A stretch of DNA of 64,000 nt from SAR86 cluster bacterium (GTDB lineage Bacteria > Pseudomonadota > Gammaproteobacteria > Magnimaribacterales > D2472). The position numbers and the translations under genes are program-made. The notes beneath the pieces are model-generated. The model saw only the letters and a program-made list of their open reading frames with translations, did not search any database and was not told the origin of the DNA. Position 1 is the first letter of the stretch; the number at the start of each line of letters is the position of its first letter. Shown one piece after another: positions 24,263 to 27,568 of the stretch. The DNA lies in assembly GCA_023703655.1 (NCBI GenBank), contig CP097973.1, forward strand, positions 414,170-478,169. Reading direction: 5' to 3'.

Positions 24263-24338
<76 letters not shown>

Positions 24339-24350
24339 GTCACACCTGAA

Positions 24351-24372
24351 GCCCCTTTAAATAGGGGTTTTC
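24351..24372 (+). terminator. Weak hairpin after tRNA-Glu
   Basis: GCCCCT-TTAAAT-AGGGGT followed by a short T run. Confidence 0.3.
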
Positions 24373-24382
24373 AGGGCATCTA

Positions 24383-24500
24383 AGAAAACAAATGTAGCCA
24401 CCATGTAGCCATGAGAATTGACTAGAAAAGCTGTAAGCTCGTTTTTAAATGTAGCCATATTTGTAGCCATAATGTAGCCACGGAGTGCGATTTGTAGCCA
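24383..24500 (+). repeat. Array of six same-orientation TGTAGCCA(T/C) motifs
   Basis: Copies start at 24383, 24394, 24450, 24462, 24473 and 24493. Neighbour spacings within clusters are 11, 12 and 11 bp. Confidence 0.85.
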
Positions 24501-24589
24501 TGTATATTTTATTTAAGTTATAAATTTAATTTTCAAAAATTTTCCATAAGTGCCACCAAACTGTTGAAAATTTTTCGTTTAATTAACAA

Positions 24590-25369
24590 ATGAAAAAAAT
24601 TGAAGTTAAAGCAATTTTCCTTTCAGATATCCATCTAGGATCCAAAGGCTGCCAAGCTGACATATTACTTAATTTCCTTAAGCAATATAAGACAAAAAAA
24701 ATTTTTTTAGTTGGCGATATTATCGATTGTTGGAGACTCAAATCAAAACTATTTTGGCCGCAATCTCATTCCGATGTACTAAGAAAATTCCTCTCTTTTT
24801 CTAAAAATGGCACCAAAGTTCATTTTGTTACAGGGAATCATGATGATTTTCTAAGACAATATCAGCCATTATCGCTTGGCAATATTGAACTTGATGAAAG
24901 ATTCTCATATGCCAGTAATGGTAAAAAATATCTTGTCATCCATGGAGATCAATTTGATATAATAACAAGGTATGGGAGATATATTTCTGTGTTCGGAGAC
25001 AGATTATACTCAGCACTTTTAATCATCAATAGATACTTTAATCGAATTAGATACAAACTTGGTTATGACTATTGGTCACTTTCCAATTATCTTAAGCAGA
25101 GAGTAAAAAAAGCAGTAAATTTTATTTCCGAGTTTGAACATAATGTTGCAGCAGAATGCAAAAAGAATGGATTTGATGGAGTAATTTGTGGTCATATTCA
25201 TAAAGTAGCAATTTCTGAAGTTAACCAAATTCAATATATGAACTGCGGTGATTGGGTAGAATCTTGTACGGGGATTATTGAACATCTCAATGGCGAATTT
25301 GAAATTATAGATTTTAGCAATGTAGCTAATTCCAATTTTTTAGAACCGATAATAAGTAAAGCTTCTTAA
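24590..25369 (+). CDS. Calcineurin-like metallophosphoesterase of the LpxH / PlcP (phosphate-stress phospholipase C) type
   Basis: 259 aa. SDIHLG, GDIID, GNHD, HGD and GHIH metal-binding motifs. Immediately followed by a GT4 glycosyltransferase, the arrangement described for plcP-agt lipid remodelling genes. Confidence 0.75.
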   Translation: MKKIEVKAIFLSDIHLGSKGCQADILLNFLKQYKTKKIFLVGDIIDCWRLKSKLFWPQSHSDVLRKFLSFSKNGTKVHFVTGNHDDFLRQYQPLSLGNIELDERFSYASNGKKYLVIHGDQFDIITRYGRYISVFGDRLYSALLIINRYFNRIRYKLGYDYWSLSNYLKQRVKKAVNFISEFEHNVAAECKKNGFDGVICGHIHKVAISEVNQIQYMNCGDWVESCTGIIEHLNGEFEIIDFSNVANSNFLEPIISKAS

Positions 25370-26394
25370 TGAAGGTTTTGATAATCACAGACGCATGGTT
25401 TCCTCAAGTCAATGGTGTTGTAACCACTTACTCAAACATTATTTCAGAACTAAGCAAGCGCAATATTGGGGTTGAAGTGCTTCATCCAGGAAAATTTTTT
25501 TCATTACCCTTACCTTTTTATAACGAAATAAAAGTTGCTATTAATCCTTGGAGAGTTATTTCAAAAATAAAAGAAAGTGATGCTGATTATATTCATATAG
25601 GCACAGAAGGACCTTTGGGAATTGTTAGCAGAATTTATTTATCATACAAAAAGATTCCTTTTACCTCAGCTGTTCACACAAAATTTCCAGAATATCTTAA
25701 GTTGCACATTAAAGTTCCTTTATCAATTACCTTCGCTCTCATGAGGTGGTTTCATAAAAGATCTCATAATGTCTTAGTAAACACAAAATCTCATAAGAAA
25801 GAATTAGAGAAGAGGGGGTTTAGAAACCTTAAAATCTGGTCAAGAGGGATAGATTTAAAAAAGTTTAAAGATACTTCAGTAAAGATAAATCATAAAAATT
25901 ATTTACTTTATGTTGGCAGAGTTTCAAAAGAAAAAAATATCGAAGCCTTCTTAAGTATAGAAACCACTCTTGAAAAAGTTGTAGTAGGCGACGGACCTTA
26001 TAGACAAAAGCTACAAAAAAAATTCCCCAAAGTAAAATTTGTTGGATGTAAAACAGGCCCTGAGCTTGCAGCTTGGTATCGTAATGCAAGTGTCTTTGTT
26101 TTTCCATCAATGACAGATACGTTTGGAATAGTGATTATTGAAGCTTTGTCTTGTGGCGTACCTGTAGCAGCTTATCCAGTTACCGGACCACTAGATATTA
26201 TTGAGGATGGAATCACAGGATCATTGGACAATGATTTGAAGACGGCTATCGACAAAGCATCAGAAATAAAAAGGGAAAATTGCACAAGAAGTTCCAAGAA
26301 ATATACATGGAGAAATGTTGCTAAACAATTTCTTTCTAAATTAGTATTAACCAAGAAAGCTAAAAGTTGTGATACAAAAGAATCAATAGCTTAA
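25369..26394 (+). CDS. Family-4-like glycosyltransferase (Agt-like glycolipid synthase candidate)
   Basis: 341 aa. GT-B fold signature: VGDGP, FPSMTDTFGIVIIEALSCGVPVAA. Its start overlaps the stop of the upstream phosphoesterase. Confidence 0.8.
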   Translation: MKVLIITDAWFPQVNGVVTTYSNIISELSKRNIGVEVLHPGKFFSLPLPFYNEIKVAINPWRVISKIKESDADYIHIGTEGPLGIVSRIYLSYKKIPFTSAVHTKFPEYLKLHIKVPLSITFALMRWFHKRSHNVLVNTKSHKKELEKRGFRNLKIWSRGIDLKKFKDTSVKINHKNYLLYVGRVSKEKNIEAFLSIETTLEKVVVGDGPYRQKLQKKFPKVKFVGCKTGPELAAWYRNASVFVFPSMTDTFGIVIIEALSCGVPVAAYPVTGPLDIIEDGITGSLDNDLKTAIDKASEIKRENCTRSSKKYTWRNVAKQFLSKLVLTKKAKSCDTKESIA

Positions 26395-26446
26395 GGGGAC
26401 TCTAAATATTAAAAATCTTTCTATTTCTTTGACAGCTGCATAGGTT

Positions 26447-26821
26447 ATGAAAAAAATATTATTTATTTGCGTTGAAAATTCATGTAGAAGCCAAATCGCT
26501 GAAGCAATTACAAACTCATTTTTTTCAGAAAAATTTCATGCATGGTCTGCTGGGTCTGCTCCATCCAATCAAGTCAATCCAAAAGCTCTCAAGTCTCTCA
26601 AAGAACTGGGGATTAGTCATGAAGGGTATCCAAAGCCTATATCAGATTTTTTTGAACATCAGTTTGATTATATTATTTCAATGGGGTGTGGAGACGCGTG
26701 TCCTGTTGTTGATGGTACAAAAAATCTAGAATGGAATATTCTTGATCCTAAAGATCTTCCGATGCAAGGTTTTAACGAGGTGAGAGATTTAATTTATGAT
26801 CAAATTAGGAGAATAGATTAG
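26447..26821 (+). CDS. arsC: Arsenate reductase, LMW-PTPase (thioredoxin-coupled) family
   Basis: 124 aa. CX5R(S) loop in ILFICVENSCRSQIAEA. Additional Cys pair in MGCGDACP. Confidence 0.8.
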   Translation: MKKILFICVENSCRSQIAEAITNSFFSEKFHAWSAGSAPSNQVNPKALKSLKELGISHEGYPKPISDFFEHQFDYIISMGCGDACPVVDGTKNLEWNILDPKDLPMQGFNEVRDLIYDQIRRID

Positions 26822-26825
26822 TCAC

Positions 26826-27458
26826 ATGCAGAAGTATTTAGTTGAGTTTATTGGCGCAGGTGTTCTATTTTGCGCAGTTGTTGGCTCGGGCATCATGGCA
26901 TCTAATTTGTCTCTAAATAATGAAGGAGTTGTTTTGTTGGCAAATACTCTTGCAACATCATTTGCACTTTATTTCTTGATAAAAACCTTCCAGGAATATG
27001 GTGATGCTCATTTTAATCCAGCCGTTTCAATGGTTGCGTATTTAAAAAAAGAGTTATCGATTTCTGAATTTTTTTACTATTGTATTTTGCAATGCACAGG
27101 GGCAATTCTTGGAGTTATTTTTGCAAACTATATGTTTGGCTTAGAGCTAATAAATTTTGCTACCAATCAAAGGGGCGGAACAAATATTTATGTTAGCGAA
27201 GTATTTGCCACCATGGGTTTAGTTATGATTATTTTTCTCTCTAAGAAAAAAAATGTAGCTATGTCAGTTGCTGCATTTATTGGAGGAGCTTACTGGTTTA
27301 CTTCTTCAACATCCTTTGCCAATCCAGCTGCAACTATATCAAGAGCCTTTTCAGATTCTTTTGCTGGAATAAATCCAGACTATATTCTTCCATTTCTAAT
27401 TGCGCAGTTATTTGGTGGTTTAATTGCATTTTTGGCCTTGAAGCCCTTTAAAAGGTAA
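26826..27458 (+). CDS. MIP-family channel (aquaporin/aquaglyceroporin, AqpS-like by context)
   Basis: 210 aa, about 6 TM. Two NPA motifs (HFNPAVS, ANPAATIS). Starts 4 nt after arsC. Confidence 0.8.
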   Translation: MQKYLVEFIGAGVLFCAVVGSGIMASNLSLNNEGVVLLANTLATSFALYFLIKTFQEYGDAHFNPAVSMVAYLKKELSISEFFYYCILQCTGAILGVIFANYMFGLELINFATNQRGGTNIYVSEVFATMGLVMIIFLSKKKNVAMSVAAFIGGAYWFTSSTSFANPAATISRAFSDSFAGINPDYILPFLIAQLFGGLIAFLALKPFKR

Positions 27459-27471
27459 AAATTAAATAAAA

Positions 27472-27502
27472 TGTAGCCATGTATACGACTTTTTTGTAGC
27501 CA
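27472..27502 (+). repeat. Two further TGTAGCCAT motifs at the right inner edge of the islet
   Basis: Copies at 27472-27479 and 27495-27502. TGTAGCCATGTATA is shared with the copy at 24493. Confidence 0.8.
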
Positions 27503-27551
27503 TGGAAAAGGAATCTCTTACCTAAAGGGATGTGAGGGAATTGCGAATAAT

Positions 27552-27568
27552 TCCCCTACGGGATGCCA
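27552..27568 (+). repeat. Right copy of the 17-bp direct repeat, within a degenerate tRNA 3'-half-like sequence
   Basis: TCCCCTACGGGATGCCA preceded by a T-arm-like hairpin, GGGAATT-GCGAAT-AATTCCC. Confidence 0.8.

Follow-up and report, generated by a model that had tools for sequence, protein, structure and literature searches.

A 3.2-kb integrase-less islet at the 3′ end of tRNA-Glu in a SAR86 genome, probably a non-autonomous integrative element mobilizable by a separate tyrosine integrase

The 3′ end of a tRNA-Glu gene in a SAR86 cluster bacterium raises the question of how a DNA segment bearing the marks of site-specific integration came to lie there with no recombinase of its own. The gene falls within a 64,000-nucleotide stretch (contig CP097973.1 of assembly GCA_023703655.1, positions 414,170 to 478,169 of the forward strand), hereafter the window, and is followed by a 3.2-kb islet of four genes. 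An earlier note on this DNA had reported that the end of the tRNA recurs at the far side of the islet and that none of the four enclosed genes is a recombinase; searches against Pfam and NCBIfam confirm the latter. Read along the forward strand, the locus consists of tRNA-Glu, a 17-bp core, an arm designated P′, the genes plcP-agt-arsC-MIP, a second arm designated P, a second copy of the core, and the native terminator of the tRNA. We consider it likely that these 3,230 bp form an integrative element, itself non-autonomous, that entered the 3′ end of tRNA-Glu by site-specific recombination of the tyrosine-integrase kind, and that it can be mobilized by a helper of the type represented by IntT, an integrase described below.

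The target is tRNA-Glu(UUC), predicted by ARAGORN at 24263-24338 on the + strand and kept in at least 20 relatives. Its final 17 nt (24322-24338, +; TCCCCTACGGGATGCCA) constitute the left core (attL core) and recur exactly at 27552-27568 (+), the right core (attR core), which is the displaced 3′ end of the tRNA. These two copies are the only ones in the 1,325,892-bp genome (33.8% G+C), shuffles of the window returned no match, and no further degenerate core was found in the window with up to four mismatches allowed. Beyond the right core lies the native 3′ flank of the tRNA (B′; 27569-27620, +) with its original terminator, a hairpin and T-run at 27577-27612 of −17.5 kcal/mol (z = −5.4), in agreement with the strong terminator reported there earlier. 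The 50 nt that follow the right 17-mer (ATTTCTTCGAAAACCCTATAGATA...CTATAGGGTTTTTTT) sit directly 3′ of tRNA-Glu in the same-genus genomes G001, G004, G006 and G008, and the flank likewise matches that of tRNA-Glu in several genomes of another genus (G016, G023, G104). The right end is therefore, as had been proposed, a displaced tRNA 3′ end followed by its original terminator. The hairpin that now stands 3′ of the intact tRNA (24345-24375; −19.2 kcal/mol, z = −4.5) is unlike the native terminator and is part of the insert, a replacement hairpin. The order secF-suhB-trmJ-tRNA-Glu is retained in 16/16 relatives examined and breaks off at the tRNA, just where the earlier note had placed the end of conserved synteny. 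The identity block is 17 bp, beginning at the 3′ strand of the T stem, and the tRNA-derived part at the right end is these 17 nt only. A T-arm-like inverted repeat (GGGAATT-GCGAAT-AATTCCC) does precede the right core as noted before, but its interpretation as a degenerate tRNA half did not hold, since its stability does not exceed that of shuffled sequence (z = −1.0) and the repeat belongs to the element's own arm.

Comparison of contigs from what we take to be a single species, those encoding an identical SecF, shows the site in both states; ten places were compared, which is not a frequency sample. Eight of them (L133-L138, L140 and L141, four of which are ~1.31 Mb long) carry an empty site, with tRNA-Glu, one 17-mer, the native terminator and nothing between, and the junction is exactly that predicted by removing the insert together with one repeat copy. 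The islet is present in the remaining two, L132 and L139, both National Center for Biotechnology Information (NCBI) assemblies, with 5 and 4 mismatches, respectively, over 3,247 bp. L132 carries a G-to-A change in the right core alone, which fits a copy that lies outside the functional tRNA. Both the occupied and the empty configuration are reproduced in independent assemblies (NCBI, ENA, JGI), and this bears on the suggestion that the 17-bp repeat arose by chance, is an assembly artefact or is part of an unrelated conserved element. The shortness of the repeat is the sole point in favor of that suggestion, and with zero chance matches expected and both configurations found independently we regard it as next to negligible. 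Across relatives and metagenomes the trmJ-tRNA-Glu locus displays presence, absence and alternative cargo; the locus is thus neither uniform among relatives nor bounded by a 17-mer that belongs to some unrelated conserved element, the two outcomes that would have told against integration. Precise empty sites and a native right flank support site-specific integration at the tRNA 3′ end.

The same contigs also differ from the window just beyond the islet, at 27620-27700. A giant Calx-beta autotransporter gene (window 27683-33709) lacks its promoter and 5′ end in this genome only; in identical-SecF contigs, those with the islet (L132, L139) as well as those without it (L133 and others), TCTTCATTTT...ATGAACGACAG comes after the terminator, together with a further ~4.5 kb of the Calx-beta gene, with window position 27621 aligning to L132 position 20400 at 99.4%. 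Because the 5′ end is present in both kinds of contig, we attribute its loss to a strain-specific ~4.5-kb deletion that abuts the attR flank and was not caused by insertion of the islet.

Both ends of the islet carry copies of the octamer TGTAGCCA. The P′ arm (24339-24500, +) comprises the replacement hairpin and six copies starting at 24393, 24404, 24450, 24462, 24473 and 24493, and the P arm (27469-27551, +) holds two (27472, 27495) together with the core-proximal inverted repeat GGGAATT..AATTCCC, which at 27536-27555 overlaps the core. The window contains 8 copies against 1.57 expected, all on the + strand and all just inside the islet ends (24393-24500 and 27472-27502); the whole genome holds 34, where ~26 would be expected, and has no further phased array. 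The P′ arm is ~85-94% identical in 15 other loci over ~180 bp, up to the last octamer, and the cargo diverges right after it. The P arm of the islet is conserved in integrase-less islets of other hosts (G107, L077, L080, L092).

Genomes of the order and a metagenome collection were searched for octamers in pairs and for the core with an octamer behind it. The arms of the islet turned up in four further members of the family (G104, G107 and G123 of genus g9, G194 of g6) and in 19 metagenome contigs; the pattern search of viral contigs found nothing. In four of the metagenome contigs (L076, L082, L084, L093) the elements are arranged as an attP, with no tRNA and with four octamers, the 17-mer and six octamers in succession, adjoining a 442-aa open reading frame (ORF). 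This ORF, IntT, is a tyrosine integrase (PF00589 at 31.2 bits against a cut-off of 27.1; phrog_1 at 1e-28) with SAM-like and DUF6538 domains at its N terminus and with motifs TGSRLGE, HSIR, GHS and TY that, read by eye, fall at the catalytic positions conserved among tyrosine recombinases. DUF6538 would be its arm-binding domain. An integrase whose attP carries the 17-mer, of the kind that the earlier note proposed to look for, thus exists in metagenomes and has the islet's own arm motif, but in the islet's genome tblastn with either the full length or the N-terminal 110 aa of IntT finds nothing. L093 (7,228 bp) has ~231 bp of terminal redundancy and L084 extends past one unit length, from which we take the IntT element to be a ~7.0-kb circle or tandem copies. 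It encodes IntT, a 455-aa ORF that matches phrog_4756 (unknown function) only and shares 24% identity with an ORF of the tRNA-Phe island of this genome, and small lipoprotein-like ORFs. Full-length IntT homologues occur in 2/266 genomes of the order, and in metagenomes they form 71 clusters, mostly on short contigs.

Several side observations attach to these searches. A 4.3-kb contig filed under a Verrucomicrobiota metagenome-assembled genome (L074, JASLKL010000184.1) carries suhB-trmJ-tRNA-Glu and a truncated TGTAGCCA arm; its content is typical of this gammaproteobacterial family, and it is probably misbinned. Some 50 members of the family (G001:C1:441359-441559 and G003:C14:27451-27723, for instance), but not this genome, have stand-alone ORFs of ~150-175 aa with 40-60% identity to IntT over its initial 60-100 residues, the DUF6538 region; these might be what is left of integrases, or domesticated proteins resembling arm-binding ones. 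The start codons of IntT, ATG-GCT-ACA (L084 5475-5483), are the reverse complement of its outermost arm site, TGTAGCCAT, and the islet retains these 9 nt at 27472-27480 despite having no integrase gene. By binding at TGTAGCCAT the integrase might repress the transcription or translation of its own gene.

The octamers are predicted to be arm-type integrase sites, and the strongest comparative evidence for this is that the octamer changes with the integrase while the core stays constant. Two complete integrase-bearing islands at trmJ-tRNA-Glu, on long contigs, share the same 17-mer and have other octamers in both arms, TGTTTCCA in L129 (8.6 kb) and TGTACCYA in L130 (9.5 kb). TGTACCYA lies in the P arm beside an integrase in L130, G237 and G010, all with the same core, and these integrases are 71-84% identical to one another and 52-53% identical to IntT. 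By sequence comparison, then, the arm motif tracks the integrase clade, with IntT going with TGTAGCCA as its putative cognate. In five relatives, L040, L051, L042, L041 and L049 (G009, G019, G016, G023 and G010), short direct-repeat motifs (TGTTTCCA, GAGTCCA, TGTACCTACA) follow the tRNA-Glu terminator with no second core, which suggests left-arm remnants of other integrase types.

Could the TGTAGCCA arrays instead be operators for a transcription factor, such as Pho boxes phased at 11 bp and controlling plcP, the 17-bp repeat being incidental? The six left copies do lie upstream of plcP, at a distance of 90-200 bp, and are phased at 11-12 bp by AT-rich spacers, Pho boxes are known from published plcP operons (PMC4796936), and a PhoB-like regulator is present at genome position 544588-545274. 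An operator, however, should be tied to a regulated Pho gene and not to element ends, whereas these arrays travel with the att core and with cargo that is unrelated: genes for lipoproteins, for a TetR regulator together with hydrolases, and others that by eye may be helicase-like or methyltransferase-like. Moreover, two copies sit downstream of the last islet gene, the arrays in attP flank the core beside the integrase gene, no second array exists in the genome, and a plcP-agt pair in genome G109 shares upstream sequence with the islet only from 24525 and has no arrays. PstS (PF12849) was not found, leaving no basis for a Pho-regulon comparison. Since the octamer also switches with the integrase clade, we read the octamers as arm-type sites and consider a Pho-box function very improbable. 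An integron gene cassette does not fit either: in place of attC and an IntI-type integrase with attI, the ends consist of a tRNA 3′ end and arm-type direct repeats, and the partner enzyme is a phage integrase of the DUF6538 type.

How would a cassette that has only its attachment sites move? The N-terminal domain of IntT most likely binds the octamers and bridges them to the core sites. Recombination of attL with attR by IntT inside the 17-bp identity would release a 3.23-kb circle, which could then enter any empty tRNA-Glu. With no recombinase of its own the islet would move only with a helper element in the same cell, and excision in trans at the present day, like the vehicle that would carry the islet from cell to cell, is part of the mechanism we propose.

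Units of 0.7-8.4 kb with no intact integrase and with diverse cargo turn up at this site throughout the family. The 17-mer is present in 93/266 genomes of the order and in two copies in 12, and core pairs on one contig are 0.68-8.4 kb apart. The five genome pairs examined (G096, G114, G118, G128, G186) have short ORFs only between the cores, none integrase-like by eye, and the arm motifs in two-core genome pairs are TGTAGTCA or TGTGTCCA. Two-core units in contigs include L080 (1.3 kb), L092 (2.5 kb) and L077 (5.0 kb, with genes that by eye are TetR-like regulator and hydrolase-like). Tandem elements at the same tRNA 3′ end are seen in G104 and L080. The smallest two-core unit, L143 (G114:C9:25058-25754), measures 680 bp and has five TGTAGTCA on the left, two on the right and one 108-aa lipoprotein-like ORF. 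The integrase-less islets of the TGTAGCCA type have in common a core-proximal P sequence, AAGGGATGAGAGGAAATTGCTAATATT, unlike the TTTTGACATC... of integrase-bearing elements; the TGTAGTCA islets also lack the integrase-type P sequence, and theirs is, by eye, loosely similar to that of the TGTAGCCA islets. In comparative terms, this shared derived P sequence points to a lineage of non-autonomous elements more than to decay that occurred independently several times. A further step would be to regard the integrase-less islets as self-propagating miniature integrative elements with a P arm of their own, a counterpart among tyrosine-integrase elements to miniature inverted-repeat transposable elements (MITEs), that parasitize rare IntT-type helpers and sustain cassette exchange at tRNA-Glu across the family, which we put forward tentatively, as possible but short of probable. 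If so, several octamer and integrase specificity types would coexist on one core, namely TGTAGCCA, TGTAGTCA, TGTTTCCA, TGTGTCCA and TGTACCYA.

A less mobile history must also be weighed, in which the islet is a fossil, left by a tRNA-Glu element that had been autonomous until its integrase was lost following integration, and is now immobile, inherited vertically and exchanged within the species solely by homologous recombination through its flanks. The genome encodes no cognate integrase, full-length IntT homologues are rare in the order, decayed relics lie at the same site, one occupied contig (L132) has a mutated right core, and the 4-5 single-nucleotide polymorphisms that separate the occupied contigs from the window are compatible with a single insertion event. 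Nevertheless, both arms and both cores of the islet in the window are intact, and islets with different cargo in different genera share a derived P arm unlike that of integrase-bearing elements, which independent decay would not yield. In addition, plcP-agt is far closer to copies from other genera than to those of its own, as described below. We therefore judge a fossil rather unlikely and favor a non-autonomous element that remains mobilizable.

Several facts weigh against that preferred interpretation. No helper integrase was seen in this genome or in the 20 kb compared around the site in the identical-SecF contigs, so that present-day mobility is a proposal. The core-proximal P arm of the islet differs from that of the IntT element, and the IntT of L084 may thus not be its exact partner. 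Decay is evident as well: besides the mutated right core of L132, contigs L078 and L087 keep only the left arm and 49 codons of plcP, and G104 keeps a 48-aa C-terminal stub of IntT fused to its second core. Finally, the presence/absence polymorphism could be kept up by homologous recombination through the flanks and not by repeated site-specific events. The stub in G104, which reads away from a core, prompted us to consider a split integrase of the SSV1 or Mx8 kind, but joining the element ends gives no continuous ORF, and what remains there is an IntT-like gene reduced to a relic by deletion.

The genome does encode three tyrosine recombinases, two of them Xer-like by their PF00589 scores and the third the integrase of an island at tRNA-Phe. 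That island (G000:C1:1231291-1240901; L056 3291-12901) is of the classical type, 9.5 kb long and bounded by a 59-nt direct repeat that is 95% identical. A 494-aa tyrosine integrase is encoded at its far end, and repeats of AAGTCATCA that resemble arm sites lie within each of the two ends. It also has a Rep-like ORF, a distant relative of the one on the IntT element, and lipoprotein genes whose signal-peptide coding sequences are nearly identical. The island repeats the design of the islet with another motif, AAGTCATCA, and we use it as an internal positive control. Its integrase is an unlikely helper for the islet, given the 59-nt tRNA-Phe repeat, the AAGTCATCA arms and the lack of tblastn similarity to IntT.

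The four cargo genes are co-oriented on the + strand. The first (24590-25369) encodes a calcineurin-type metallophosphoesterase (PF00149, 1e-14) that is LpxH-like, although LpxH models score far below their cut-offs, and is probably PlcP. It is followed by a GT4 glycosyltransferase (25369-26394; PF00534 and PF13439, with weak matches to glycolipid synthases), Agt-like and assigned to glycolipid synthesis; by an ArsC-like arsenate reductase of the LMWP family (26447-26821; PF01451, 9e-20, with ArsC model matches below cut-offs); and by a MIP-family channel (26826-27458; PF00230, 2e-16) that is a candidate arsenite or glycerol channel. PlcP is a phospholipase C used in the remodeling of lipids under phosphate starvation. 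Operons of plcP and agt have been published for such remodeling, and PlcP has been reported in SAR86 (PMC4796936). A PlcP-Agt function is suggested for the islet pair by its pairing with a GT4 enzyme as in those operons, and the cargo as a whole would serve in phosphate shortage, by replacement of phospholipids, and against arsenic, by detoxification of arsenate.

The history of plcP-agt differs from that of its host. The metallophosphoesterase is patchy, occurring in 28/138 other genomes of the family, and its closest copies are in G109 (g9, 92%) and G024 (g10, 88%), compared with 61-63% for same-genus copies; for plcP-agt the figures are ~92% to copies from other genera against 51-63% to those of the same genus. 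The GT4 enzyme has ~91.5% amino-acid identity to those of G109 and G107, both of another genus (91.6% for G107). At the nucleotide level the G109 pair is 89.8% identical to window 24525-26360 and has no att sequences around it. In G008, of the same genus, plcP-agt sits in a conserved chromosomal neighborhood whose flanks map to 753.6-758.9 kb in this genome, where the pair is missing; at that position there is a ~330-bp intergenic gap (G000:C1:754388-754722) between flanking genes that are 40-74% identical, and the native copy is gone. The closeness to other genera and the empty native locus together indicate that the islet supplies plcP-agt from another lineage. In the sibling islet of G107 the GT4 gene is followed directly by the P arm, without arsC or MIP, which marks the arsC-MIP pair as a separate module. 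We had also considered whether the abundance of the cargo proteins pointed to spread beyond the host (the plcP product is found on 216 contigs and ArsC on 235), but host SecF (356) and YajC (760) are as common or commoner, and this argument was dropped.

Elements of this class are already known. The best-supported description makes the islet a CIME-like element, non-autonomous itself, from a family of tyrosine-integrase elements specific for tRNA-Glu, and comparable to a MITE beside its autonomous partner. The cis-mobilizable element (CIME) was defined for streptococcal ICE/IME systems, those of conjugative (ICE) and of mobilizable (IME) integrative elements (PMC5704250). Like a CIME, the islet keeps attL and attR of an integrase-bearing family in functional-looking form, with the core and both arms matching the attP of IntT apart from a variant core-proximal P arm; it has no integration or transfer genes and would rely on the integrase of a related element, and tandem elements occur at the same tRNA end. 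Unlike in those systems, the relatives here are without conjugation genes, the partner is not an ICE but a ~7-kb element that encodes an integrase, lipoproteins and a Rep-like ORF, and the islets, with their shared derived P arm and diverse adaptive cargo, look like a propagating lineage and not like one-off products of decay. The tycheposons of Prochlorococcus, tRNA-targeting tyrosine-recombinase elements that form tandem arrays with partial tRNAs and integrase fragments and carry nutrient cargo (bioRxiv 10.1101/2020.12.28.424599), offer a second parallel. Here too we find a streamlined marine host, a tRNA target, tandem arrays with partial tRNAs, degenerate remnants, adaptive cargo linked to nutrient stress, and elements that are rare relative to the islands they build; but Prochlorococcus belongs to a different phylum from this gammaproteobacterium, the integrase-less units here keep complete arrays of arm sites, and the likeness is one of architecture and ecology. 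Additive flexible genomic islands with recurring tRNA 3′-end repeats, such as those at the tRNA-Lys of 'Ca. Methylopumilus' (PMC10872708), similarly consist of cassettes bounded by the last 17-20 nt of a tRNA that vary between strains of a streamlined planktonic bacterium, whereas at tRNA-Glu a putative attP, integrase and arm sites can be named. With classical tRNA islands that have P4- or lambda-type integrases, as in the Islander definition (PMC4383910), the islet shares an intact, regenerated tRNA at one end, a displaced 3′ fragment as a direct repeat at the other, an empty site with a single repeat copy in close relatives, and direct-repeat arm sites in both arms. In contrast to islands of that kind it is 3.2 kb long with a 17-bp identity block, and it lacks the internal integrase that such pipelines require: none of its four ORFs is a recombinase, and tblastn with IntT and with the tRNA-Phe integrase gave no match in the window. 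New here are the defined integrase/attP partner, a single core shared by arm motifs that vary with the integrase, and how prevalent integrase-less cassettes with complete att flanks are in this group.

Streamlined ocean bacteria have few obvious mobile elements and yet differ greatly in gene content from strain to strain, and the tRNA-Glu locus offers a concrete route by which such differences may arise. It is a hotspot that takes small cassettes consisting of recombination sites and useful genes only, while the recombinase resides on a rare, separate element. As att sites, a candidate integrase and natural empty sites have been identified, the mechanism is directly testable in Escherichia coli, and metagenomes allow one to follow where the islet is present or absent in relation to the availability of phosphate.

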